Source: Prolixibacter sp. (GTDB lineage Bacteria > Bacteroidota > Bacteroidia > Bacteroidales > Prolixibacteraceae). From it: DNA of 57,473 nucleotides. The position numbers and the translations under genes were made by a program. The stretch covers positions 1 through 57,473 of the forward strand of contig JBBIUJ010000002.1 of NCBI GenBank assembly GCA_037440345.1, given 5' to 3'. Below, in pieces: positions 8,604 to 45,345 of the stretch. The notes under the pieces are model-generated. The model was not told the DNA's origin, did not search any database, and worked only from the letters and a program-made list of their open reading frames with translations. The number at the start of each line of letters is the position of its first letter. The stretch's first letter is position 1.

Positions 8604-10769
8604 TTACTGGATCACTTTAAGGTAGCGTGCCATCCAGTAGGGTAGAAGGTATTCGTCGCCGGCCAATCGGGAGCTCCTGCCATCGTTGCAGTCCAGGGCA
8701 AATGGATTGGTATTGTGACGGATCATTGGCCGTTCGCCAGAAGTAAGCAGCTCTTTCGTGATTTGTTCCCTGAAATTCTCAGGAATGCGGACCAGGTCTT
8801 TTCTGTGCGAGTTTTTGGTGGAGTAGCGATCCAGATCAGGCGTGTACTCCCTGAGGTACCAAATGGTCGAATTAAGGTCGATATCACCGCTTATGCCATA
8901 AGTAATTATATTCCATAGTCCGTCTTTTTCGGGTTTCTCTATCTCCCAATGGTCCCGTGCAACCCACTCATATTTTTTCTTTAGCGATTCATTGAAAGGA
9001 TATTTATGTAGTACCCAATAGGTTAGAAAAGACATTTCGTCGTCCGAGTGGTTCCAGGTATCACCCATCACTTCACCCTTATGGACAAACTCTGTTGTTT
9101 GCATCATGGTTTTCATGGGGATCATGATATTATCCAGGTAACCGTATTTGTCCATCATTTTGTAGGCCTCAGATTTGTACTTTTCTTTGCCGGTAAGCGA
9201 GTAGGCCAATTGCAGGCCGGCAATCAGGTGTGCGCTGTTTAATTTTCTGTCGTCCACATATTTGGCATAGGAATTCACGTATTCAGGATTCCATCTTCCC
9301 CAACGGGTTGGTTGGCCATCGACATCAATGAAATAGTAGTTGTTGTCGATGATGTGGGTCATGATTGCATCAATGAAATCTGCGACCCGCTTCTTTTCCG
9401 GAGAAGTTTTGGCTATAAACTGATCCATCACAGTAGCGACGAAAAGGTAGCCGATGTATTCATCCGTGCTGGTGGTTCCCTTCCAGTCCCATTCGGGATT
9501 TTGGGACGGTCGCCAGGCCAATGTATCGTGAATGATTCCTTTGCGCTCGAAGGTCCGGGATGGAAACCCTTTCAACGGATTGACTGTCAGCAAACGCTCA
9601 AAGGCTTCAAACGACTCCCATGCGTAACGTTTGGCAATTTCCTCGCCTGTTGTGGCAAATCTGAATGCCTGACTGCTAAGGTATAACGTTGTCCACAGAC
9701 CATCGTTGTCATTATCTACTGCCTGGGCAGTTGTTAAATCTCCTGGTTTTCCATAGTTGATTTCGCAAACAAAGCCATAACGCATATGGTATTTTCGGAT
9801 GTCGTCCTGGATCTTATTGGCCTTAGCTGCCAGGGTTGTTGGAGAGAATGCAATTTTGCTAAGGCCGGTGGGAGATAGAAGATAAATATTTCCTTCAGTA
9901 TCTGCCTTCATGTCAATTATTTCGTTGTTTACCAACCAGCGTTCTCCCTGAAAGTAGCGGTATTTTCCATTCTCTTCCCTAAAAGCACCGTCTGAAGTAG
10001 AAAACCAGGTTTGGTTGTTGACGACAAGCAGATCGTTGATTGAAACAACAGGTAACTCCTTTTTTAATGGTTGTATAACCTTTCCATTTAAAGGATTTAG
10101 GACCAGATACCCATCCTTTGTTCCCACAATTAATTTGCCGGTTGAAAATGTCATGCTGGTTAGATTATCTCCCTGGTAAATGGTTTTCCAGTCATTTTGT
10201 ACCAATGTTTTGATACTGTTTCGCGACAAGGCATAAAAATTTTCCTTATCGACATACCATCGCAATGGTTGATTTCCAGGTGATTTAAGGTCAGAAATCT
10301 TTTCCTGGCCTTTGTAAAGGGACACTTTCTCAAGTCCGGCGAGCATCACAATGCCAGATTGGTTGACAAGGATGGTTTGGTAGCTGTTTTCCGGTATTTT
10401 GGCGAAAATAGTACCTGCATGTGCATTGGTCAGAAACCTGTCTGCGTAAAGGTAATAGAGGTATCCGGAACCCTCCTGGGTGGTGATATCCACCGGATTC
10501 ATATCCGAAAGTTTTCTGTAGAGCAGGTCTTTTGAGATTTTCGATCCGTAGAAATCGCGGTAGAGTCCTTTGTCGGTCAGCACATAGACATTGTTGTTGT
10601 AATCAACTTCCAGTTTGAGAAGTTTTGCCATTTTCAACTCTGGTGCGACCTCATATTTTACTGAGGTGGCCTGGGGATAGGGTTCATCTTTAATCTGTCC
10701 GAATGAGAAAAGCGGAAATAGGAGAGTGGGGATCAAAACCCTCAATTGATTTTTAAACCTCATTGCCAT
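8604..10769 (-). CDS. Secreted two-domain protein: N-terminal regulator-propeller-like repeats plus a C-terminal helical (glycosidase-like?) domain; function unknown; paralog of 23588..25828
   Basis: Signal peptide present. Propeller-type repeats (GTKDGYLVLNP, WFSTSDGAFRE). The C-terminal blocks DNDGLWT, LKGFPSRTFER, PEWDWKGTTSTDE, WGRWNPEYVN, WNHSDDEM and LLPYWMARYL are shared colinearly with the 746-aa ORF. Confidence 0.75.
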   Translation of the reverse strand: MAMRFKNQLRVLIPTLLFPLFSFGQIKDEPYPQATSVKYEVAPELKMAKLLKLEVDYNNNVYVLTDKGLYRDFYGSKISKDLLYRKLSDMNPVDITTQEGSGYLYYLYADRFLTNAHAGTIFAKIPENSYQTILVNQSGIVMLAGLEKVSLYKGQEKISDLKSPGNQPLRWYVDKENFYALSRNSIKTLVQNDWKTIYQGDNLTSMTFSTGKLIVGTKDGYLVLNPLNGKVIQPLKKELPVVSINDLLVVNNQTWFSTSDGAFREENGKYRYFQGERWLVNNEIIDMKADTEGNIYLLSPTGLSKIAFSPTTLAAKANKIQDDIRKYHMRYGFVCEINYGKPGDLTTAQAVDNDNDGLWTTLYLSSQAFRFATTGEEIAKRYAWESFEAFERLLTVNPLKGFPSRTFERKGIIHDTLAWRPSQNPEWDWKGTTSTDEYIGYLFVATVMDQFIAKTSPEKKRVADFIDAIMTHIIDNNYYFIDVDGQPTRWGRWNPEYVNSYAKYVDDRKLNSAHLIAGLQLAYSLTGKEKYKSEAYKMMDKYGYLDNIMIPMKTMMQTTEFVHKGEVMGDTWNHSDDEMSFLTYWVLHKYPFNESLKKKYEWVARDHWEIEKPEKDGLWNIITYGISGDIDLNSTIWYLREYTPDLDRYSTKNSHRKDLVRIPENFREQITKELLTSGERPMIRHNTNPFALDCNDGRSSRLAGDEYLLPYWMARYLKVIQ

Positions 10770-10908
10770 AAATTAGTAGTAGTAATTGAAATAGATTCGA
10801 TGCAAATTGGCATTAATTTGTCAATTTAATTTCAGTTTTCAATACCAATACTTATGAAATATTACCCCAATTCAAGTCAGGGAAAGTCCAAAAATCAGGC
10901 AAATTTTG

Positions 10909-10949
10909 ATCAATTGACGGGGTGACTCTGAGTCACCCCGTCAATTGAT
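10909..10949 (-). terminator. Near-perfect 20-bp stem hairpin directly after the GH42 stop
   Basis: ATCAATTGACGGGGTGACTC-T-GAGTCACCCCGTCAATTGAT. It is flanked by an A/T run. No canonical downstream U-tract exists on the minus strand, so the terminator function is inferred. Confidence 0.55.
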
Positions 10950-10957
10950 TAAAAAAA

Positions 10958-13033
10958 CTATAACTTCCACACTGTAACACAGGCAGTTAGAAGCTCTTTT
11001 TTGCCGATCAAAATTTGCGCTGAATCGGGGATATTTAAGGTGTATGGTTTGTCCGAATAATTAACGGCAATGCCCAATCCATCACGATATTCGACAGAGA
11101 CCCCATCAGGGAAGTTCTCAATCCGAATAGACAATTTAGCATAGAGCTTTTTCAGCACTTCTTTTTCAATCAAGCCGTCATTGCTGTCGATACCAACATA
11201 AGTTACAGTTCCTTTACCGAGTTTTCTGCTGATTACGGCAGGTTTTCCGGCATAAAAATCGCCCTGATAGGTACCAAGTACTTTGGTTTCAGTCCTTGGT
11301 TTTATAATCTCTCCCCAGGTTTTCCAGGCATATTTTCTTGTATCCATTACAACTGAGTCCTGCGAATGGGGCATGGGGAGATCGTAAAACTCAATTTCAG
11401 CGCCAATCAGATCGTAAATAGGAGCAGCAAATTTGGCTTCCCACAAATGGCCTTCGCGGTCCTTGTGACCTGTACGGCAGGAGAGTACTAAATTACCTCC
11501 AGCCACAACATATCGGGTTAATTTATTGATTAACTCTTTGTCGATCTGCTGATAAGCCGGAGCTATCACAACAGGATATTTTGAGAAATCTGTCTGATCA
11601 TTGATGAAATCAACCGGCGCCCCGAATGATTTTAGAGGATTGTAGTATTTGGATACATGGTTCATTGAGTTCCATTGCGCGGTTTGTTTGTTCATCTCCA
11701 TTCCCCAGATATTCTCATTGTTGAAGAGTATCGCCGTTTTTCTTGCAAGATAGTCGGCCGGGAGAGATGTAGCAGGTTGGTATAATTTTCTAAGCTGACT
11801 AATTTCTTGAATAAATTTCTGGTACTCCAATCCGCCAGGGGTAGGAGTGACACCATCTGGACCGACAATCCCATAATGGTATTGCTCATAACCGACCAGA
11901 GGGGCCCTGTACCGGTAGGTGCATACCAGGCTGCTTCCACCTGCAAACTGATGCCACAACCATAATCTGACAGAACCAGGAAGTGGCTGCGAATTGATGG
12001 TCCCCCAGTTTACCTGACCCGGTTGCAGTTCCATGACTCCATAAATCGGAGTTTTTGGTCTAAAAAAATCGTTGGCCATTGCAATTCTCAAAGGATCGCC
12101 CAATCGGTATCCCTTTTTTCCGATACCCAAAGATTCGCCATAAACCATGTACCTGGTGTAGGTGATAAAATCAAGTTCCTTGCTTTGGCCTATGTAACCG
12201 CTATCGTAGTTAGGTATGTAATTGGTTGTTACCCATTGTTTGTTGGAGGCATATTTTTTTATTTCGACAGCTTGCTCATCCAGAAATGTGGCTGTTTCAC
12301 TTGCCGCAAAACGGTAATGATCAAGCCTTTGGTTAAGGTTCATACCCCATTGCTTGTGAAGTGGGATATTGATCTGGGAAAAGTCGCTGTAGGTATTGCT
12401 CCAGAACAGGGTGCCCCAGGTGGTGTTGAGCGCATCGATCGATTGGTATTTTTTCTTTAGCCAGTCCCGAAACCGTTGCTGTGCATCGGGATTGTAATCA
12501 AAAAATGTTCCGGGTTCATTGTCGACCTGCCATCCAACTATTCGTGGATCGTTGCCATAGTGACGAGCCAGTTGTTCAATCATTTTGAGCGAATAACTCC
12601 TATAATAAGTGCTTGAAAAGGAGGCATGTTGCCGGGACCCATGATCCATTCTCTGGCCATTTTCGTTCATCGACAGAATCTCAGGATGCTTTCTCGATAG
12701 CCAAACTGGCGGCGTACAGGTTGAGGTGCACATGATAACGGGCAGTTTGTACTTAGCAGCGATGGCCACTGCTTTGTCGAGCCAGGCAAAGTCATATTTT
12801 CCCTCCTCCGGTTCAAGCTGAGCCCAGGCAAACTCTGCAAAATGGGTGAATTCGAATCCCATTGCAGCGATGTTCTTAAGATCCCTGTCCCATTGAGTGG
12901 AGTCCCAATGCTCAGGATAATAATAAACGCCAGTAGTTATCAGTCTGTTTTTTGGAAAAGAATTATCAATCTTTTGGCCATTTGTAATAAGTGCAAGAAA
13001 GATGAAAAGTAGAGTCAACCTAAATTTTCTCAT
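10958..13033 (-). CDS. Beta-galactosidase, glycoside hydrolase family 42-like
   Basis: Signal peptide present. The N-terminal TIM-barrel motifs GVYYYPEHW...FAWAQLEPEEGKYDFAWLD and WQVDNEPG (acid/base Glu) are typical of GH42. The 691 aa length fits. Confidence 0.85.
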   Translation of the reverse strand: MRKFRLTLLFIFLALITNGQKIDNSFPKNRLITTGVYYYPEHWDSTQWDRDLKNIAAMGFEFTHFAEFAWAQLEPEEGKYDFAWLDKAVAIAAKYKLPVIMCTSTCTPPVWLSRKHPEILSMNENGQRMDHGSRQHASFSSTYYRSYSLKMIEQLARHYGNDPRIVGWQVDNEPGTFFDYNPDAQQRFRDWLKKKYQSIDALNTTWGTLFWSNTYSDFSQINIPLHKQWGMNLNQRLDHYRFAASETATFLDEQAVEIKKYASNKQWVTTNYIPNYDSGYIGQSKELDFITYTRYMVYGESLGIGKKGYRLGDPLRIAMANDFFRPKTPIYGVMELQPGQVNWGTINSQPLPGSVRLWLWHQFAGGSSLVCTYRYRAPLVGYEQYHYGIVGPDGVTPTPGGLEYQKFIQEISQLRKLYQPATSLPADYLARKTAILFNNENIWGMEMNKQTAQWNSMNHVSKYYNPLKSFGAPVDFINDQTDFSKYPVVIAPAYQQIDKELINKLTRYVVAGGNLVLSCRTGHKDREGHLWEAKFAAPIYDLIGAEIEFYDLPMPHSQDSVVMDTRKYAWKTWGEIIKPRTETKVLGTYQGDFYAGKPAVISRKLGKGTVTYVGIDSNDGLIEKEVLKKLYAKLSIRIENFPDGVSVEYRDGLGIAVNYSDKPYTLNIPDSAQILIGKKELLTACVTVWKL

Positions 13034-35956: not shown

Positions 35957-36516
35957 ATTGGGATTTTCTGGATTATTGGTTTGCTGGATTATTTATAGTG
36001 AAGGGATAGTATTGGGCATCTTATTTTTGGGATGCCTTAATCTTTTTATTCCGGGGCTTCCAGCGCCAAAGTTGAGGAGCATAATCTTATAAGTTAGCTC
36101 ATCGTCAATCTTTTCATTTTCCATTCGTTGTAAAAGTTATAATGATAATGTGGCAAACTCATTTTTGATGAATAAGTTACAGAATTTCAAAGACAAAAAC
36201 GAATATTGATTATGTTATTATCATGTTGACAGCCCATAAAATTTTTTCAATTACTACAATAATTAATCCAACAATCCCCAAATCCCCCGAATCCACATGC
36301 AGACAATTGGCACATAATCAACTATATAAAATACAGATGTTTAAATATGCAACACTGTATAAAATATATACACTATTTTTAATAATCTAATATACAGCAT
36401 TATACGATAAATTCGAATATTTACTGTTGAATAAATCAACACATGCTGTGTTTAAAATTCGAACAAAATTTTTTTAAATACCTCATAGACAATTAGATAC
36501 GACATAGAAATTTTCA

Positions 36517-36531
36517 TGGCACACTTATTGA
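36517..36531 (+). promoter_or_regulatory. Candidate sigma-54 (-24/-12) promoter
   Basis: TGGCAC-ACTTA-TTGA has the correct GG-to-G spacing of 12 nt. It lies about 75 nt upstream of the ATG at 36604. The -12 element reads TTGA rather than the consensus TTGC. A sigma-54-dependent activator is encoded 6.7 kb downstream. Confidence 0.5.
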
Positions 36532-36603
36532 AATAGTCTTATAGGATGTTCATTTCAATCAGGGAACAAATCAGGGATTTTATCATTACCTATAATTTCA
36601 GCC

Positions 36604-38301
36604 ATGAAAACAATTTCATTTTTCACCATTGGGTTGTCACTTTTGATCTCAAATCAAACGGCCTTTGCGGCAAGCGGGCCGGACAATCCTTCTGTATCTG
36701 CCGCGGTTCAATCGATGACAAATACAGCGAAGATCTCCAGTTCCCCCGAATTGTATAATCTGGCGCAGAATTGGGCCAAGGATTACAATGCAGCCAATCC
36801 GTCTTCCATGATCACTGTGGGACAGGCTGTTACGGGGAATACAGTGCAAGCTGAAACTTTATTTTTAGCTTCGGATGAAAATACTCCCGTGCTATCCAAT
36901 CCTTCGAATTGGAAAATGGTGGTTGGTAGGGATGTAATCGTTCCAATTATTTCTGCAAAGAATCCGATGCTCAGTCAGTTGGCTCAAGTCGGGTTATCTG
37001 CCGAAAAATTTGCCATGCTTTTTAAGGGTACTGAAATAAAGAAATGGTCAACGTATGTTCCGAATGGTCAGAATGTTCCAGTACAGATCTATTTACCCGA
37101 CAACCGGAATCTGCTGACTAGCCTGGAAGCTTTTACCAATTCCTCAATAGCCACAACCAGCGTAAAAAGCTTGAACTCTGCTGATGAGCTCATCTCCGCC
37201 GTTCAAAATGACATGTTTTCTATCGGTTTTTGTAAGCTAAGTGACTTAAAATCCTTGAATGTTTATAGTGAGGCAGAAAAGATCAGACTTCTGCCGATCG
37301 ACAAAAACGGCAATGGACGGCTGGACAATTTTGAAAATATTTATGGGAGCCTTGAGGAATTTACCCATGGGGTATGGATCGGTAAATACCCAAATGCTTT
37401 GTGTAATAATATCTATGCTGTTTCAGTAATAAAACCTACGCAAAAAAGCGAGGTGGCTTTCCTTTCCTGGATACTAAATGACGGACAGAAATTATTGAAT
37501 TCTAACGGATTTTGTGATTTGACGAGCAGTGAGAAGGAGTCAAACTTGGCCTCATTGGTGGGAGCAGGTGCTGATCATCCAAATTTAACTTCAATTGTTG
37601 CCTCTCCAAAAACCTGGCCGGTAATGCTGACAATCGCCGGGTTGGTCGGATTATTCCTGATTCTCTTTTTCTATAGCAAAGGCAGTACTGCTTCAGCCCC
37701 CATAGATCCACATATCCAACTTGCACCACTCATGGTTGAAAAGATTATGGATGTACCCAAAGGCCTCTACTTTGACAAAACCCACACATGGGCTTTCATG
37801 GAGCAGGATGGTAATGTCAGGGTTGGTATAGACGATTTTCTACAGCACATAACCGGGAAATTGACCAAAATTAAAATGAGGGAAGCAGGTGAGCAAGTGC
37901 GGAAAGGTGAAACAATCATGACGATCATTCAGGAAGGCAAGCAATTGAATATCTATGCTCCAATTTCCGGAACAATTCTGGAACAGAACGGATCTCTGCT
38001 CACAGACACCGGCATTATCAATACATCACCTTTCTTCAAAGGATGGGTCTACCAGATCGAACCTAAGAATTGGTTGAGAGAGGTTCAGTTCATGTTTATG
38101 GGGGATAAATATGCCGAGTGGCTCAAAGATGAATTTACCAGACTCAAGGATTTCATTGCCGCAACTGTCCGAACCAATAACCTGGTCTATGCACATGTTG
38201 TGCTTCAGGATGGGGGAGAATTAACCGACAACGTACTTGCTGAAATGGATCCAAAAGTTTGGGAAGATTTTCAGACACAATTCATTGATTCTTCCAGGTA
38301 A
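36604..38301 (+). CDS. Fusion protein: signal peptide + PstS-like periplasmic binding domain + one TM + GcvH-like (lipoyl-carrier fold) domain + conserved C-terminal extension
   Basis: PBP_like_2-type motifs (ISSSPELYNLAQNWAKDY...ITV, FSIGFCKLSDL). TM at aa 337-356. GcvH-like blocks KTHTWAF, VGIDDFLQ, QEGKQLNIYAPISG and SPFFKGWVYQIEP. Confidence 0.75.
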   Translation: MKTISFFTIGLSLLISNQTAFAASGPDNPSVSAAVQSMTNTAKISSSPELYNLAQNWAKDYNAANPSSMITVGQAVTGNTVQAETLFLASDENTPVLSNPSNWKMVVGRDVIVPIISAKNPMLSQLAQVGLSAEKFAMLFKGTEIKKWSTYVPNGQNVPVQIYLPDNRNLLTSLEAFTNSSIATTSVKSLNSADELISAVQNDMFSIGFCKLSDLKSLNVYSEAEKIRLLPIDKNGNGRLDNFENIYGSLEEFTHGVWIGKYPNALCNNIYAVSVIKPTQKSEVAFLSWILNDGQKLLNSNGFCDLTSSEKESNLASLVGAGADHPNLTSIVASPKTWPVMLTIAGLVGLFLILFFYSKGSTASAPIDPHIQLAPLMVEKIMDVPKGLYFDKTHTWAFMEQDGNVRVGIDDFLQHITGKLTKIKMREAGEQVRKGETIMTIIQEGKQLNIYAPISGTILEQNGSLLTDTGIINTSPFFKGWVYQIEPKNWLREVQFMFMGDKYAEWLKDEFTRLKDFIAATVRTNNLVYAHVVLQDGGELTDNVLAEMDPKVWEDFQTQFIDSSR

Positions 38302-38345
38302 CAAGAACACAACACTTTTACTAACAGCAGACTAATTTATATCGT

Positions 38346-39212
38346 ATGAATTTTGATCGACGTAATTTCTTTAAGACCGTTTGTGTTGCCGGCGCAACAC
38401 TCGCAGTGGGAAACAGTTTTGGAGCTTCGAAACCGGATGGAAATACCATAGAATTTCAAGGTGTCCTGTACGACTCAACCCGCTGCCTGGGCTGCCGGGC
38501 GTGCGAAAGGGTTTGTGCCAAGGCGCATGAACTCCCTGAACCTAAAGATGAACTAAAAGCCGGTGTTATTCGGAAAACCAGTGAAAAACAGCGCTCAGTG
38601 ATCAACAACTATGTCACTTCAAAGGGCGAAGTCTACATCAAAAAACAGTGCATGCATTGCAACGAGCCAGCTTGTGCAGCTGCCTGTCTTACCCAGGCCA
38701 TGTACAAAACCAAAGAGGGTCCTGTTGTCTGGAGAGGCAACAAATGCATGGGATGCCGGTTTTGCATGGTCTCTTGTCCGTTTGATGTGCCAAAATTTGA
38801 GTACCACAGCGCAAATCCAAAAATTGAAAAGTGCGATATGTGCTATGAACGAATAAAAGCAGGAAAAATCCCTGCTTGTTCCGAAGCATGTCCTGGTGAT
38901 GCCCTGACTTTCGGAACGAGAAGGGAGTTGATAGCCGAAGCCAGAAAGAGAATTTTTGAAAACCCCAAAGATTATGTAGATCAAATATGGGGAGAACAGG
39001 TTGCAGGAGGAACCGGCTGGCTCTACCTTTCATCTGCCCCTTTCAATGAAGTGGGATTCAATACCAAACTGCAAAACTCCTCATATCCCGAATTGTCCAA
39101 GGGATTTCTCTATGCCGTTCCTTCAGTATTTGTACTGTTACCCCCACTTTTGCTGGGTATCCACGAAGCCACAAAAAATAGAAACCACGCTAATGACGAA
39201 GAAAATGAATAA
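38346..39212 (+). CDS. Tat-exported 4x[4Fe-4S] ferredoxin subunit with a C-terminal TM anchor (HybA/DsrO/NrfC-like)
   Basis: RRNFFK Tat signal. Sixteen Cys in four groups: CLGCRACERVC, CMHCNEPACAAAC, CMGCRFCMVSCP and CDMC...CSEACP. Hydrophobic C-terminal helix. Confidence 0.85.
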   Translation: MNFDRRNFFKTVCVAGATLAVGNSFGASKPDGNTIEFQGVLYDSTRCLGCRACERVCAKAHELPEPKDELKAGVIRKTSEKQRSVINNYVTSKGEVYIKKQCMHCNEPACAAACLTQAMYKTKEGPVVWRGNKCMGCRFCMVSCPFDVPKFEYHSANPKIEKCDMCYERIKAGKIPACSEACPGDALTFGTRRELIAEARKRIFENPKDYVDQIWGEQVAGGTGWLYLSSAPFNEVGFNTKLQNSSYPELSKGFLYAVPSVFVLLPPLLLGIHEATKNRNHANDEENE

Positions 39213-40434
39213 GCAAGCTCAAACCATAGCGAAAGACAACGATGGGAGTTCCATCATTAAATTTATTTTGAGTGAATTGAAGCCCAAAGGTAGGATATTG
39301 ACTCCTTTCAACATCATTGCAATCCCAATCATCCTGCTTGGTATTGTGTTGATTGTTATAAGGTTCATGAACGGGATCGGATCCATTACCAACTTGTCAC
39401 AAGAGACTCCCTGGGGTTTGTGGATCGGATTTGATGTTGTGACAGGTGTTGCTTTTGCTGGCGGCGCTTATGTTCTCACTTTCATGGTCTATATCCTGAA
39501 GATGGAAAAATACCGTTCCATCGTTAGAGTCACGGTTCTGAATGGTTTTCTTGCCTATCTGTTTTATGCCGGCGCATTGCTGCTGGATCTTGGAAGGCCA
39601 TGGAATGTGGTCAATCCAATCATCGGCAACAGTTTTGGTACCAGTTCGGTCCTGTTTCTGGTGGCATGGCATTTCTTACTTTACATGATCGCCGAGCTTA
39701 TCGAGTTTTCACCTGCCATCGCCGAATGGCTGGGCACCAGAAGGGCCCGTAAAATTCTTTCAGGATTGACCATGGGCGCCGTTATTTTTGGTATCACCTT
39801 GTCTACTTTGCATCAATCAGGACTGGGGGCCCTATTTTTGATGGCCAAGGATAAAATCCATCCACTGTGGTATTCCGAATTTATCCCCATCATGTTTCTG
39901 GTATCCAGTATTTTTGCAGGATTATCGATGGTCATTTTTGAGGGTTCCATTAGTCACAAAGTATTCTTCAATCAGATCAGCGAGAAAAACCACAAGGCTC
40001 AGGGGGGGATACTTCAGGGATTGGCCAAGATCTGTGCCGGGGCCATGTTTGCCTACTTCTTTCTGCAACTGCTGGTTTTTATACACAGCAAAAATTGGGA
40101 TCTTATAAATACACCAATGGGTTATTGGTTCCTTTTCGAAATGATAGGTTTTGTCCTGGTCCCAATGCTGCTTTACCTGTATAGCTACCGTACCCGGAAT
40201 ATTCTCCTGATACGAGTGGCAGCCATCCTGACCATGTTGGGAATCATATTGAACAGGCTGAATATTTCAGTGATAGGTTTCAAATGGGATGCACCCGTTC
40301 ATTACTATCCATCGTGGATGGAAATTGTCGTCACCCTCACTGTAATTTTTACGGAGATATTAATATTCAGATGGATCATTCACCGCATGCCTGTGTTGAG
40401 GGACTCACCAGCCTGGGTGGAAGAGGAACATTAA
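39193..40434 (+). CDS. NrfD/HybB/DsrP/PsrC-family integral membrane quinone-interacting subunit
   Basis: About 10 predicted TM helices and a size of about 410 aa, positioned directly after the NrfC-like gene. The start is chosen at ATG 39193 (MTKKMNK), overlapping the upstream stop. The longer ORF from 39001 lies inside the FeS gene. Confidence 0.8.
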   Translation: MTKKMNKQAQTIAKDNDGSSIIKFILSELKPKGRILTPFNIIAIPIILLGIVLIVIRFMNGIGSITNLSQETPWGLWIGFDVVTGVAFAGGAYVLTFMVYILKMEKYRSIVRVTVLNGFLAYLFYAGALLLDLGRPWNVVNPIIGNSFGTSSVLFLVAWHFLLYMIAELIEFSPAIAEWLGTRRARKILSGLTMGAVIFGITLSTLHQSGLGALFLMAKDKIHPLWYSEFIPIMFLVSSIFAGLSMVIFEGSISHKVFFNQISEKNHKAQGGILQGLAKICAGAMFAYFFLQLLVFIHSKNWDLINTPMGYWFLFEMIGFVLVPMLLYLYSYRTRNILLIRVAAILTMLGIILNRLNISVIGFKWDAPVHYYPSWMEIVVTLTVIFTEILIFRWIIHRMPVLRDSPAWVEEEH

Positions 40435-40487
40435 TGAAAATTGATAAAGTCACAAATTAAATATTGTAAACTTTAATAAGCTTCACC

Positions 40488-41264
40488 ATGGACGGATTTA
40501 CTTACCACAACATTTTTGAAACGAAGGGGATAGAATATCTGGCAATTATCGCCTTCTTCGCCATCCTGATTCCATTCTGGATTATCCTGAACAGACAGGT
40601 AAGGATGACCAAACAACTACAAAAAAAATTAGGAATTCTGACTGCCAGTATGTTAAGGATCCCGCAAGGCATTTATTTTAGCAAAAATCACATGTGGACA
40701 CATCTCGACAGCAAAGGGATTGCCAAAGTCGGGGTGGATGATCTGTTGCTACACCTTACGGGAGAAGTAAAATTTAGCAGACTCAGGAAACCAGGAGAAA
40801 TTGTTAAAAAGGAGGATCTGCTCGCCGTGATCAATCACGATGGTAAACAATTAAAAATAGTATCACCCATTTCTGGGGAAATCATTTCGGCCAATACTGT
40901 GCTTCAGGATAATCCTGAAATACTCAATGAAGATCCTTACCAAAAAGGTTGGATGTACAAAATCAAGCCATCCAGATGGATAGCCGAAACGAGTACCTGC
41001 TATCTAGCTGAAGAAGCAACCGGTTGGTCGGTCAAGGAGTTGGAAAGATTCAAGGATTTTCTTGCTACTTCTGTGGAAAGATATACTCCGGAACCTTCCA
41101 ATATTATATTGCAAGATGGTGGTGAATTGATTGATCAGCCTCTTTCTGTACTACCAGAGGAAGTTTGGAAAGATTTCGAGCATAGCTTTCTTGGGACAAA
41201 ACCAACTTACCCACATTTCCGCGGATTGGAGAAGAGCGGTTACGAACCCGAGTATTTTCAATAG
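40488..41264 (+). CDS. Membrane-tethered GcvH-like protein (one N-terminal TM), paralog of the C-terminal half of 36604..38301
   Basis: TM at aa 17-35, followed by the basic stretch NRQVRMTKQLQKK. GcvH-like blocks KNHMWTH, VGVDDLLL, HDGKQLKIVSPISG and DPYQKGWMYKIKP. It shares the extension ...LQDGGEL...VWKDFE. Confidence 0.75.
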   Translation: MDGFTYHNIFETKGIEYLAIIAFFAILIPFWIILNRQVRMTKQLQKKLGILTASMLRIPQGIYFSKNHMWTHLDSKGIAKVGVDDLLLHLTGEVKFSRLRKPGEIVKKEDLLAVINHDGKQLKIVSPISGEIISANTVLQDNPEILNEDPYQKGWMYKIKPSRWIAETSTCYLAEEATGWSVKELERFKDFLATSVERYTPEPSNIILQDGGELIDQPLSVLPEEVWKDFEHSFLGTKPTYPHFRGLEKSGYEPEYFQ

Positions 41265-41320: not shown

Positions 41321-41356
41321 GAAGCGATGTGCATGCCACATCGCTTCATTTTTATT
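41321..41356 (+). terminator. Rho-independent terminator ending the 36604..41264 operon
   Basis: An 11-bp perfect stem GAAGCGATGTG/CACATCGCTTC with loop CATGC, followed by ATTTTTATT. Confidence 0.8.
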
Positions 41357-41565
41357 AGGCATTTATTCAATTCGCTCTTTAGAATGCAAACAAATATGCA
41401 AGAAAATTGAATATTTGAACCATTTTTTAAATTTTTGAGATTAACTTAGCATACAGTAACACCATATCTTTCAGGCACTTTAGCAACTTTTGAAAATGCA
41501 AGTACGCTGGTCACTTCCAAACAAAGGTTAATTGTCTGACGATTGAGTTAACATTCATTGCTACA

Positions 41566-43236
41566 ATGAGTTGGATACATAGAATATCGAAAGGTAACAA
41601 AGTTGGGGCCCCCATCTTAAACAGTTATGTGAAATTTCGTTCCTCCATTTATGGAAGGGTAGTTGTAATAATTACTATCTCCTCCTTTTTTCTCTTTTTG
41701 TCGTTTGGCGTTATCTTCCGCTCAGTCAATGAGAATTACATGAAGTCTGTCATTCGGGAGAGCGGGAACAACATCGGAGTCCTGGTGGAAGGCGCTTTAT
41801 ATCGGTCGATGCTGGAAAATGACAGGACTGCCTTGCAGGGTACGCTGGATATCATCAATACCATGTCGGGGATCGATGATGTAAACATGTACGACAACAA
41901 AAATAACCTGGTTTACTCCTCCATTGCAAACGATACTACCAATCACAGCGATCCTGATTGTATATCCTGTCACAAAAATTTTGCAACCATGTTCTCTTCC
42001 ACTGATAAATCCTACAAAATTATCGGGATTGACAGTGAATGCAGCATGAACCATAACAACAACAATTGCAGGCATCTGTTGATAAAATCACCGATTCGCA
42101 ATGACAAATCGTGCTATACCAGTGCCTGTCATGCTCATAGTGAAAACGACAAAGTTCTTGGTTCATTGATTATTAAGATTCCTCTTTCAGGTTTGGACGC
42201 TGCTTTGCAGAAATCCACCACCGATTATTTTTTTCTGGCTGCATTGCTTACCTTTTTGTTAATTCTCTTTTTAATATTCTTTACCCGAAAGAAAATTAAG
42301 AATCCGTTGAATGCAATTATTAAAGCAAGTTTGGCTGTTGCCGGAGGCGACAGGAGTACCAGGCTCGAAGTTAAACCCCACCAGTTATCAGATATGAGAA
42401 TGGTGTCGGTTGCTTTCAATGAGATGCTTGACAACCTGCAGACAGCCACCAATGAGTTGCAAAACTGGTCGCAACAACTCGAATATAAAGTGCAGAAGAA
42501 GTCTGAGGAGCTTGGGCAGGCACAAAATGAACTTATCAATGTCGAAAGGATCGCTTCGCTGGGCAAATTGTCACTTTCCGTAGCGCACGAAATCAACAAT
42601 CCCCTTTCCGGAATATTGATTTATGCAAAATTGGTGTACGAACAACTTGGTAACCAGGATATTGATCCGGCTAAAAAGGAATTGATGCTCAAACATCTGA
42701 AACTCATTGAAAATGAGACCAAGCGGTGTGGTGATATCGTCAAGGGGTTGCTTGATTTTTCGAGAAAAAACCAGGATGGTTTCGAGCAAAAACACCTTCA
42801 TGAAATATTGAATGAAACCTTTGAATTGATGTCACATCCGATGAAGATTGCCAATGTCCATTTCATTTCGGATTTTTCGGCCAAACCGGATCTGATCTAT
42901 TGTAGTCCTAACCAGATCAAGCAGGCCTGTATTGGGATTTTGGTCAATGCATCGGAAGCTGTTTCTGAGAACGGGGAAGTTCTCTTCAGGACGCTGAACC
43001 CGGATGCAGATCATATCCGCATTGAGATATCCGACAATGGTGTGGGAATCAATGAGGAGGATATTTCCCATATTTTTGAACCGTTCTTTTCTACCAAACA
43101 GAATGCCAGCGGTATAGGTCTTGGATTGGCAATCGTTCATGGAATCGTTCAGAACCACAAAGGAAAAGCAGATGTAAAATCAGAAAGAGGCAAGGGTACG
43201 ACAATTTCACTGACACTACCTCTTATCAGGAATTAA
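41566..43236 (+). CDS. Sensor histidine kinase with a Cys-rich periplasmic domain carrying a CxxCH heme-c motif; HAMP, HisKA and HATPase domains
   Basis: Two TM helices (aa ~31-51 and ~221-240) bracket a domain with CISCH (aa 132-136), C159/C168 and CYTSACH (aa 183-189). H-box [12 protein letters not shown]-boxes DNGVGI and GIGLGL. Confidence 0.85.
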
Positions 43237-43248
43237 TGTTTATATAGT

Positions 43249-44589
43249 ATGGCCAAAAAAATTTCAATTTTAATTGTTGACGATGAGGAATCGGTAAGGG
43301 ATTCGTTGTACAACTGGTTCATAGAAGATGGTTATTATGTCGAATGTGCCGAAAATGCAAAAAAAGCCCTCACAATTCTTCAGTCCGACAGCTTCAACAT
43401 CGTACTGGCAGACATCAAAATGCCCGGTATGGATGGCCTGGAAATGTTAAAACGCATCAAGGCCTTGAAAAGCGACGCCATTGTCATTATCATGACCGCC
43501 TTCGCTACGGTAGATACAGCAGTGCAGGCCCTAAAAGACGGTGCATATGACTATGTGACGAAGCCGTTCGATCCGGACGATCTTTCCCATTTGATCAGGA
43601 ATGCCTCCAAGCAAATATCCCTGATCGAAGAGAATGAGATTTTGAAAGACAAAGTTATTTCGCTCGAAAATGTGGAAGATATGGTGGGCCACAGCGAAGC
43701 CATGCTGGAGGTATTCAGGCAAATTGAGAGTGTAGCGCAATCCAATGCTTCCGTGATTATCACCGGCGAAAGCGGTACTGGTAAAGAGCTTGTAGCGAAA
43801 GCCATACACGCCAATTCACCGCGCAAATTCTTTCCGATGGTAAGCGTTCATTGTGGTGCATTGACTGAAAGTCTACTCGAAAGTGAACTGTTCGGACATG
43901 AAAAGGGGGCATTTACAGGTGCCGTCTACAACAGAAAAGGCCGGTTCGAAATGGCCGACAGCGGTACAATTTTTTTGGATGAAATTGCCACCATCTCTCC
44001 AAAAATGCAGGTGGAACTTTTGCGTGTGCTGGAGACGAAAAGCTTTGTCAGGGTTGGCGGAAACAAGGAGATTAGTTCCGATTTCAGGGTACTGTGTGCC
44101 ACCAACAGGGATTTAAAGGGTTTGGTTGAGAAAGGTTTGTTCCGTGAAGACCTTTTTTATCGGCTCAATGTGGTAAATATCAATATACCACCATTGCGGG
44201 AACGGGTGGAGGATATTCCTTTGCTGATCGATTATTTTATCAAGAAGTATTGCAGTTCAATGAACAGGCCCATTGTCACCATTGAACCTGCTGCGTTGCA
44301 TCGCATGGAGACATATACCTATCCCGGGAATATCCGTGAACTCGAAAATATGATCGAGCGCGCCATTGTTATTGGAAATGGAAAGAAGATCATGCTGAGG
44401 GATCTTCCACTGATGAAGGAGCGAAGCCAACCAACCTTTGAGAGCCTGGATGACCTTGGCAAAAAGCACATTCTTCAGATACTTAACAAATACAGCTGGA
44501 ACATAACAGTTTCGGCCAAGGCATTGAAACTCGACAGGGTTACACTGTACAACAAGATTAAGAAATATGGTCTGACGCCACCAAAATGA
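43249..44589 (+). CDS. Sigma-54-dependent response regulator (NtrC/AtoC family: REC + AAA+ + Fis-type HTH)
   Basis: Receiver DDEE...LADIKMPGMDG, Walker A GESGTGKE, sigma-54 contact loop GAFTGA, and a C-terminal HTH. Confidence 0.92.
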   Translation: MAKKISILIVDDEESVRDSLYNWFIEDGYYVECAENAKKALTILQSDSFNIVLADIKMPGMDGLEMLKRIKALKSDAIVIIMTAFATVDTAVQALKDGAYDYVTKPFDPDDLSHLIRNASKQISLIEENEILKDKVISLENVEDMVGHSEAMLEVFRQIESVAQSNASVIITGESGTGKELVAKAIHANSPRKFFPMVSVHCGALTESLLESELFGHEKGAFTGAVYNRKGRFEMADSGTIFLDEIATISPKMQVELLRVLETKSFVRVGGNKEISSDFRVLCATNRDLKGLVEKGLFREDLFYRLNVVNINIPPLRERVEDIPLLIDYFIKKYCSSMNRPIVTIEPAALHRMETYTYPGNIRELENMIERAIVIGNGKKIMLRDLPLMKERSQPTFESLDDLGKKHILQILNKYSWNITVSAKALKLDRVTLYNKIKKYGLTPPK

Positions 44590-44808: not shown

Positions 44809-45345
44809 ATGAAGCTGGAAAAAATCAAATTGATCTCCTTTGGATATTTTGAGAAGGGCCTTCTTGATAAAGTAGTTAAGAATGTGGAACATGAATTTCA
44901 ACTTCCTGTCAAAACAAAGGAGGGTCATCTGGATCTCAGCCTATTTTATGATCCTGCCCGACGGCAGTATGATGGATTCAGGTTACTGAAAGAGATCGAT
45001 TCCGGTTTTGCCAAAGAGACAAACAAAACCCTCGGACTTTTCAATGTTGATCTCTATATTCCCATATTAACCTACATATTTGGGCAGGCATATCTGAACG
45101 GTCGAACCGGAATCGCTTCGATCTACCGATTGAGAAACGAACGGTATGGTATCTTCAAAGACGAGAAAATACTGGTGGAACGATTTCGAAAAGAGGTCAT
45201 ACACGAGCTAGGCCATACCTTTGGATTGATCCACTGCCATGACCCTTCGTGTGTGATGCGGTCGAGCACCTATGTTGAAGACATCGATCAAAAAGAACAT
45301 CAGTTATGCCGCCATTGCAAAGAGAAACTGACCATTCACACCTGA
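44809..45345 (+). CDS. amzA: Archaemetzincin-type zinc metalloprotease (peptidase M54-like)
   Basis: HELGHTFGLIHCHDPSCVMRSS...CRHC matches the archaemetzincin signature HExxHxxGxxHCxxxxCxM plus the terminal CxxC. Confidence 0.8.
   Translation: MKLEKIKLISFGYFEKGLLDKVVKNVEHEFQLPVKTKEGHLDLSLFYDPARRQYDGFRLLKEIDSGFAKETNKTLGLFNVDLYIPILTYIFGQAYLNGRTGIASIYRLRNERYGIFKDEKILVERFRKEVIHELGHTFGLIHCHDPSCVMRSSTYVEDIDQKEHQLCRHCKEKLTIHT

Follow-up and report, generated by a model that had tools for sequence, protein, structure and literature searches.

NrfD-type modules are a common membrane plug-in of anaerobic respiration and are found in the Psr, Nrf, Hyb, Dsr, Qrc, ACIII and Hmc systems. In the HmcABCDEF/NhcABCD complexes of Desulfovibrio, a Tat-exported, tail-anchored tetra-cluster ferredoxin (HmcB) is accompanied by a membrane protein with 10 transmembrane (TM) helices (HmcC) and a single-pass protein (HmcD), whose genes follow each other in the order B-C-D in the hmc operon. 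The HybA/HybB proteins of the E. coli hybOABC operon form the same type of pair, a tail-anchored iron-sulfur (Fe-S) protein and an NrfD-type protein, and their genes are flanked by hybO and hybC, which belong to a group 1c [NiFe] hydrogenase. Here we analyzed four genes, g1 to g4, in a 57,473-nucleotide (nt) stretch of Prolixibacter sp. DNA (contig JBBIUJ010000002.1, positions 1 to 57,473, referred to as the window), which an initial annotation had described as an orphan NrfCD-type quinone module (g2 and g3) bracketed by two membrane-tethered GcvH-like proteins (g1 and g4). We found that the four genes are part of a conserved seven-gene cassette, which looks like a real, widespread and undescribed variant of the NrfCD-type membrane complex. 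The GcvH-fold domains of g1 and g4 have a true GcvH fold without the feature that defines a lipoyl carrier.

Profile searches of the two central proteins agreed with their description as a textbook NrfCD-type pair. g2 matched Pfam Fer4_11 (6.4e-22) and has a Tat motif (RRNFFK), four cluster motifs with 16 cysteines in total, and a hydrophobic anchor at its C-terminus (residues 254-272). g3 matched Pfam NrfD with 53.9 bits (cutoff 25.8) and contains 10 hydrophobic segments and a single cysteine. The NrfD/PsrC family is characterized by an NrfD domain, 8-10 TM helices lacking cofactor motifs and an adjacent NrfC-type four-cluster ferredoxin, and g3, with g2 encoded directly upstream, fits this description. 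In the NCBIfam ranking, g2 scored highest with HmcB (312 bits, cutoff 420) and g3 with HmcC (410 bits, cutoff 550), and the Hyb proteins were second best for both (HybA, 218 bits; HybB, 255 bits).

The same searches identified Pfam GCV_H in both flanking proteins, at residues 388-509 of g1 (E 9e-24, 84 bits) and residues 63-163 of g4 (E 2.6e-23, 83 bits), against a cutoff of 22.2 bits. When the AlphaFold model of g4 (predicted local distance difference test score, pLDDT, of 86; 70-sequence alignment) was compared with solved structures by Foldseek, it matched GcvH (3ab9, 1onl and 3a7a) with a TM-score of ~0.9 and a root mean square deviation of 1.5-1.9 A at 26-31% identity. The AlphaFold model of g1 had a pLDDT of 68 overall and of ~85 in the periplasmic domain, and Foldseek again identified its C-terminal domain as GcvH. 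With one TM helix in each protein, the profiles and the structure comparison confirmed that both flanking genes encode a GcvH-fold domain on a single membrane anchor. Unlike GcvH, however, these domains are membrane tethered and continue into a helical extension, the last ~50 residues, which is common to g1 and g4, contains an invariant LQDGGE motif and had no match among the PDB structures. The g4 protein of the window also has a C-terminal tail (residues 236-258, KPTYPHFRGLEKSGYEPEYFQ) that is present only in the closest relatives of the window and absent from most g4-type proteins.

A further difference from GcvH was found at the lipoyl attachment site. Alignments of g1 and g4 to the E. coli and Thermus GcvH proteins by MAFFT and HMMER were ungapped through the lipoyl hairpin and placed a glycine of either protein in the column of the lipoyl-lysine (ESVK in E. 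coli). This column was glycine in 104/104 g1-type cluster representatives. The residue that follows was lysine in 102 of these representatives and arginine in the remaining 2, and it was variable (K/N/I/R/H/Q) in the g4-type proteins. In an alignment of g4 relatives at >=60% identity (alignment A2), the residues H68, W70, D84 and D85 were invariant.

The conservation of the locus was surveyed in 85 loci, comprising the best 80 obtained by scanning GTDB with a single genome for each species and five additional ones, with the 80 loci biased by the A2-based search toward relatives at >=59% identity. The full unit consists of g1, g2, g3, g4, a sensor histidine kinase, a response regulator and an M54 peptidase, and this order was kept in ~80 of the 85 loci, the rest being mostly contig-edge ends. 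In an all-against-all clustering of the open reading frames (ORFs) from 89 loci, only the seven cassette genes recurred; the remaining clusters of this kind were due to antisense ORFs, which are artefacts, or to SecA and Lgt in close relatives. The flanks of the cassette were lineage specific, and SecA and Lgt were found upstream solely in those close relatives. Synteny is thus kept very strongly in related genomes, and the unit extends beyond the four genes of the initial annotation to seven.

A relative of g4 was encoded in at least 383 genomes of the species scan. In a protein collection clustered at 90%, the g4 family had 1785 relatives at E <= 1e-3 and the g1 family had 1938, and the g4 relatives carried no annotation other than "glycine cleavage system protein H," which is a mis-annotation. 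The carriers are mostly Prolixibacteraceae and other Bacteroidales, including Tangfeifania, Mariniphaga, Draconibacterium and the cultured Sunxiuqinia dokdonensis DH1 (locus L064), and the identity of g3 between species is 70-98%.

The same cassette was present on contigs of Marinimicrobia (Marinisomatota), where the first gene encodes 236 amino acids (aa) without the periplasmic domain and an extra, third GcvH-like gene follows g4. Two other loci, L172 (an NCBI assembly, start cut off) and L173, showed the g4 side of this arrangement. The third GcvH-like protein is soluble and very divergent, has no hairpin lysine and contains an N-terminal C-x12-C-x5-C-x2-C motif, a possible zinc or Fe-S site. 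In L045, a metagenome-assembled genome labelled Chlorobiota, g1 likewise lacks the periplasmic domain. In one locus (L052, 6055-8714), g4 comes immediately after g1 and neither g2 nor g3 was detected in between, owing to either a deletion or an artefact of the assembly.

The N-terminal domain of g1 has a PstS-type phosphate-binding fold according to Foldseek (E 6e-15 to 4jwo, 4pqj and 1twy), and precomputed PF12849 matches were found on many g1 homologs. The fold was recognized only by structure comparison, as a sequence search of this domain against the PDB returned nothing, and the match of g1 to the NCBIfam model ptsS_2 was 20.7 bits against a cutoff of 206.6. Judged by eye, the phosphate-binding motif R..SGT of PstS is apparently replaced in g1, and no pstCAB genes were found near the cassette in the clustered loci. 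The domain also contains a 12-residue EF-hand-type loop (g1 residues 233-244, DKNGNGRLDNFE), which was present in 214/219 g1-type proteins and which fits the PROSITE EF-hand pattern at positions 1-12. Because g1 lacks the PstS-like domain in Marinimicrobia and in L045, the domain is accessory, and the core of the protein is the TM helix with the GcvH-fold domain and the extension.

We then considered on which side of the membrane the domains are located. In g1, a signal peptide and the binding domain precede the TM helix (residues 340-358). In g4, a basic stretch follows the TM helix. In a natural fusion protein (P0255), the N-terminal stub of g4-type proteins is attached directly to a periplasmic binding protein (PBP) domain, indicating that the stub is periplasmic. 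Because of these features, the GcvH-fold domains of g1 and g4 are predicted to be cytoplasmic, on the opposite side from the periplasmic Fe-S clusters of g2. Since NrfD proteins are cofactor-less and the TM parts of g1 and g4 are single helices without conserved His or Cys, we infer that no electron path leads from the membrane module to the cytoplasmic GcvH-fold domains.

These results bear on the proposal of the initial annotation that the module couples quinone redox chemistry to a lipoyl-type carrier. The proposal was not sustained, and a lipoyl swinging arm was rejected as the general mechanism: the canonical column is glycine, the adjacent lysine is not conserved in g4 and is absent in the third paralog, and no cofactor path across the membrane is apparent. 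A broader version, in which the GcvH-fold domains would bear a lipoyl or other covalent group, at least on the near-invariant lysine of g1, and would thereby link the membrane module to an enzyme in the cytoplasm by carrying reducing equivalents, an acyl group or a sulfur group back and forth, appears quite improbable to us. Such a relay would be consistent with the true GcvH fold at ~30% identity to lipoylated H-proteins, with the Gly-Lys at the hairpin tip of 102/104 g1-type representatives, with the orientation of both domains toward the cytoplasm, where lipoate ligases act, and with the third, soluble Cys4 protein of the Marinimicrobia cassettes. However, the lysine sits one residue away from the canonical site, and Wallis and Perham reportedly found in 1994 that such a shift abolishes the lipoylation of E2 lipoyl domains. 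Moreover, two g1-type representatives have Arg at this position, many g4-type proteins have N, I, R, H or Q, and the third paralog has no Lys. Every member also falls below the GcvH equivalog cutoffs (TIGR00527/NF002270, 115.85/117 bits), g1 with 67.8/85 bits and g4 with 74.5/84.1 bits. Genes for a lipoate ligase, a dehydrogenase or an Hdr-like protein are missing from the cassette and did not recur among the 89 clustered loci, and the cofactor-less NrfD protein and the single helices without conserved His or Cys would leave electrons no route to the cytoplasm. The GcvH-fold domains are probably not lipoyl carriers.

The same observations separate these domains from LbpA, the GcvH-like lipoate carrier of the sHdr system. 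Unlike GcvH and LbpA, the cassette domains have no link to gcvT/gcvP, lipoate ligase or sHdr genes, and the canonical lysine expected of an LbpA protein is missing.

The gene neighborhoods were also searched. No molybdopterin, hydrogenase, multiheme cytochrome or Hdr-like gene was present in the operon, as the initial annotation had stated, or in the window neighborhood, and a search for a multiheme partner in the window found none. Known catalytic partners were likewise not recurrent among the 89 loci, so the view of the cassette as a decayed complex that has lost its catalytic partner was rejected, no gene beyond the seven being recurrent. Only three loci (L044, L045 and L058) have a homologous small tetraheme cytochrome of the c554 family next to the cassette. 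In L045, the flanks encode this cytochrome (1201-1701) and an 827-aa cytochrome (9817-12300) in which 16 CxxCH motifs are fused to a cytochrome b561-type membrane domain, resembling Geobacter CbcL. Pairs of a tail-anchored ferredoxin and an NrfD protein have been reported to occur typically with periplasmic c-type cytochromes (PMC10924467).

An alternative is that g2 and g3 are an orphan HybA/HybB-type anchor for a periplasmic enzyme encoded elsewhere, such as a hydrogenase, formate dehydrogenase or molybdoenzyme, with the GcvH-like genes as incidental neighbors. The matches of g2 and g3 to HybA and HybB would fit this explanation, as would a gene for a hydrogenase-2-type large subunit that lies convergent and ~4.5 kb from the cassette in Marinimicrobia. 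However, a metagenome scan with the HybC protein of this gene showed that this gene is part of a hybO-hybA-hybB-hybC-hybD operon. Its HybA and HybB proteins share only 30-34% identity with g2 and g3, compared with 61-63% for the cassette copies in the same loci, and no sigma-54 motif was found upstream of it. An orphan hydrogenase-2 anchor was rejected on the ground that this neighboring operon has its own hybA and hybB. In addition, no hydrogenase or molybdoenzyme was found near the cassette in the Bacteroidales loci, and g1 and g4 were never apart from g2 and g3 except at L052. Translational coupling and a shared promoter and terminator further argue that the four genes are one unit, and we regard the orphan-anchor explanation as very doubtful.

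Among the described complexes, Hmc/Nhc shows the closest parallel, with HmcB-HmcC-HmcD corresponding to g2-g3-g4 in the same gene order. Of 70 g4-type proteins, 19 were matched by the HmcD model NF045712, which covers 38 positions (best E 4.3e-4). Each of these matches lay at the TM helix near the N-terminus, and the g4 of the window was not matched. A precomputed weak match linked one g4-type protein (P0394) to Pfam PF28260 (DVU_0533); DVU0533 is the D. vulgaris locus tag of HmcD. From these similarities and the gene order, g2, g3 and the N-terminal part of g4 are likely, although not proven, to be homologous to HmcBCD/NhcBCD. The differences are also clear. The HmcA/NhcA multiheme cytochrome, the cytochrome b HmcE and the HdrD-like HmcF have no counterpart in the cassette operon; they are absent from the window and from all except a few of the loci. 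The D-type subunit of the cassette has a cytoplasmic GcvH-fold domain fused to it and occurs in two copies, and the scores of g2, g3 and g4 are all below the equivalog cutoffs. The Hmc hosts are sulfate reducers, whereas the cassette hosts are fermentative or facultative Bacteroidales and Marinimicrobia.

The initial annotation had placed the module outside all named NrfD-family complexes. This stands insofar as our literature search found no paper that joins GcvH and NrfD and none that describes this combination, but it has to be qualified by the parallel of g2-g3-g4 with HmcB-HmcC-HmcD. In the 2021 review of the NrfD family (PMC8076601), no complex with cytoplasmic GcvH-fold subunits appears, and only "NhcC" in two Bacteroidetes is recorded.

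Based on these results, we tentatively favor, at somewhat less than an even chance, the idea that the cassette encodes an Hmc/Nhc-like oxidoreductase between quinone and a periplasmic partner, controlled by sigma-54 and a two-component system, with an HmcD-type subunit that was fused to a cofactor-less GcvH-fold module and duplicated. The products of g1 to g4 would form a four-subunit inner-membrane complex with a core homologous to HmcB-HmcC-HmcD (NhcBCD). In this complex, g3 would exchange electrons with the menaquinone pool, g2 would be the periplasmic tetra-[4Fe-4S] protein, and g4 would be the HmcD-like single-pass subunit. Electrons would be shuttled between menaquinol/menaquinone and a diffusible periplasmic partner encoded outside the cassette, most likely a small multiheme c-type cytochrome or a small redox-active compound; a cytochrome encoded elsewhere is the most economical guess. 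The HmcD-like subunit would have been fused to the cytoplasmic GcvH-fold domain with its LQDGGE extension before being duplicated, g1 being the second copy, which in Bacteroidales would additionally have gained the periplasmic PstS-fold domain with its EF-hand loop.

In such an oxidoreductase, the GcvH-fold domains may cap the NrfD subunit on its cytoplasmic side or serve there as an adaptor, without catalysis of their own and with a structural, gating or regulatory role. We infer this role by analogy with the N-terminal barrel-sandwich hybrid domains of NqrA and RnfC, which are cofactor-less, lipoyl/biotinyl-like domains located at the cytoplasmic side of a membrane redox complex. Weak profile matches to these domains were found in 13/70 (NqrA) and 14/70 (RnfC) g4-type proteins. 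However, the resemblance is only distant and at the level of the fold, and Nqr and Rnf are unrelated to the NrfD complexes; the comparison is a functional analogy and not one of membership.

Several points weigh against the oxidoreductase model. A cytochrome adjoins the cassette in just 3 of ~85 loci. The similarity to HmcD is below the cutoff (<=19 bits versus 34) and comes from a short model of a TM helix, and g2 and g3 also fall below the HmcB and HmcC equivalog cutoffs. The four-protein complex is itself a prediction from the genes. A purely structural role offers no obvious reason for the strong conservation of the GcvH-fold domains, which retain ~30% identity to real GcvH, invariant H68, W70, D84 and D85 residues in the g4 relatives and the near-invariant Gly-Lys of g1. 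Finally, the model does not explain the constant presence of the M54 protease.

The control of the cassette was analyzed through its promoter and its regulatory genes. The near-consensus sigma-54 promoter noted earlier before g1 was found again, and the motif TGGCAY-N5-TTG[AG] was present within 300 nt upstream of g1 in 66/71 related loci, compared with a background of 0.012 per 300 nt. Its -12 element is TTGA or TTGG instead of TTGC, and the motif was also found upstream of the distant, Marinimicrobia-type cassettes. A second match to the motif lies at 43094-43108 on the minus strand, within the kinase gene, and two matches in the window are at chance level (21/100 shuffles). As expected for a sigma-54-dependent operon, the cassette has both the promoter motif and a regulator with a Sigma54_activat domain, and the response regulator gene follows the kinase gene in essentially all loci.

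The periplasmic domain of the kinase (residues 55-215), located between two TM helices, contains a CxxCH motif (C132-C135-H136), a lone cysteine (C159) and a Cx4CH motif (C183...C188-H189), all invariant from Bacteroidales to Marinimicrobia. The Cx4CH heme spacing is known from cytochrome c3, and the sensor domain had no Pfam match. The region looks like an undescribed (di)heme-c sensor domain, and the kinase is best read as a c-type heme sensor of the periplasmic redox state or of a heme ligand, a feature that the initial annotation had missed. In the favored oxidoreductase model, the sigma-54 promoter would presumably be activated by this adjacent two-component system, with the kinase sensing the redox state or a heme ligand via its c-type heme. 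The M54 gene, the last conserved gene, lies downstream of the regulator gene in 74 loci and in every distant variant, including Marinimicrobia, and its protein retains the HExxHxxGxxH zinc motif.

The regulatory genes suggest another explanation, in which g1 to g4 would be an accessory signal-input device for the adjacent kinase and not a metabolic enzyme. The NrfD/ferredoxin pair would bring the periplasmic Fe-S clusters, and possibly the kinase hemes, into equilibrium with the quinone pool. A periplasmic ligand would be bound by the PstS-fold/EF-hand domain of g1, and the GcvH-fold domains in the cytoplasm would signal to one of the three other gene products of the cassette, namely the kinase, the regulator or the protease. 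These three are indeed tied to g1 to g4 across two phyla and many different flanks, g1 has a receptor-like build (ligand-binding domain, TM helix and cytoplasmic domain), and the invariant heme-c motifs of the kinase would need a redox partner. The lack of a catalytic subunit or substrate-specific enzyme in the cassette and of a cofactor site in the GcvH-fold domains points in the same direction. Nevertheless, a regulator beside the respiratory operon that it regulates is an ordinary arrangement, as in ttrSR-ttrBCA, and the PBP domain is dispensable in Marinimicrobia and L045. With their own sigma-54 promoter and terminator, g1 to g4 look like a regulated output rather than an input, and a 10-TM NrfD protein at 70-98% interspecies identity looks like an enzyme under catalytic constraint. 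We consider a sensory role of the complex fairly unlikely.

Another way to read the GcvH-fold domains, unlikely in our judgment, is that the NrfD protein is part of a machine of a new kind in which its quinone-linked conformational or proton-channel changes are read or controlled by the tethered, non-lipoylated domains on the cytoplasmic side, or in which the near-invariant Gly-Lys of g1 has a novel modification. If true, such a machine, together with the c-heme kinase and the archaemetzincin, would be a device for transduction from redox state to cytoplasm without a described counterpart.

The arrangement of the genes in the window supports a single unit from g1 to g4. As originally noted, the four genes are packed on the same strand, with 44 nt between g1 and g2, an 8-nt overlap of g2 and g3, and 53 nt between g3 and g4. 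The ORF of g3 spans 39001-40434, but the gene itself starts with the ATG at 39205, in agreement with the 409-aa product called in relatives. The strong terminator proposed to end the unit was found after g4, with a stem-loop at 41321-41347 that has 6 GC pairs in its stem. The spacer between lgt and g1 (35957-36603) is unusually long (~650 nt) and AT rich, and contains a terminator-like hairpin (36014-36037) as well as the sigma-54 element. The coordinates of the features are listed in Table 1.

Table 1. Features of the cassette in the window, and third GcvH-like genes in other loci (coordinates of the respective locus)
Feature	Coordinates	Strand	Description
g1	36604..38301	+	565 aa; PstS-fold domain, 1 TM helix, GcvH-fold domain, helical extension
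g2	38346..39212	+	288 aa; predicted Tat-exported, tail-anchored ferredoxin, four [4Fe-4S] motifs, HmcB/HybA-like
g3	39205..40434	+	409 aa; predicted cofactor-less quinone-interacting NrfD-family membrane subunit, HmcC-like
g4	40488..41264	+	258 aa; conserved 17-residue predicted periplasmic stub, 1 TM helix, GcvH-fold domain, LQDGGE extension
Sensor histidine kinase	41566..43236	+	556 aa; Pfam HAMP, HisKA, HATPase_c
NtrC-family sigma-54-dependent response regulator	43249..44589	+	446 aa; Pfam Response_reg, Sigma54_activat (1.3e-68), HTH_8
Peptidase M54, archaemetzincin-like	44809..45345	+	178 aa; Pfam Peptidase_M54 4.1e-24; zinc motif HELGHTFGLIH
Sigma-54-type promoter element TGGCAC-N5-TTGA (-24/-12)	36517..36531	+	87 nt 5' of g1
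Intrinsic terminator closing g1-g4	41321..41357	+	11-bp stem, 5-nt loop, T tract
Third GcvH-like gene, L087	10796-11503		
Third GcvH-like gene, L088	10834-11553		
Third GcvH-like gene, L090	10769-11479		
Third GcvH-like gene, L172	2944-3699		
Third GcvH-like gene, L173	587-1285		

The seven genes are fixed as a unit in at least several hundred species, among them Bacteroidales of sediment, lake and groundwater as well as Marinimicrobia, and because the cassette is so widespread in this fixed form, it is probably important for anaerobic life in these settings. The cassette also places kinases with c-type heme sensor domains and bacterial archaemetzincins, both poorly understood, in a genetic context, and cultured carriers such as S. 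dokdonensis DH1 make experiments feasible. In the cassette, the GcvH fold has been reused as a membrane-tethered, apparently cofactor-less module, and there is a real chance that this cytoplasmic part of the complex does something unprecedented.

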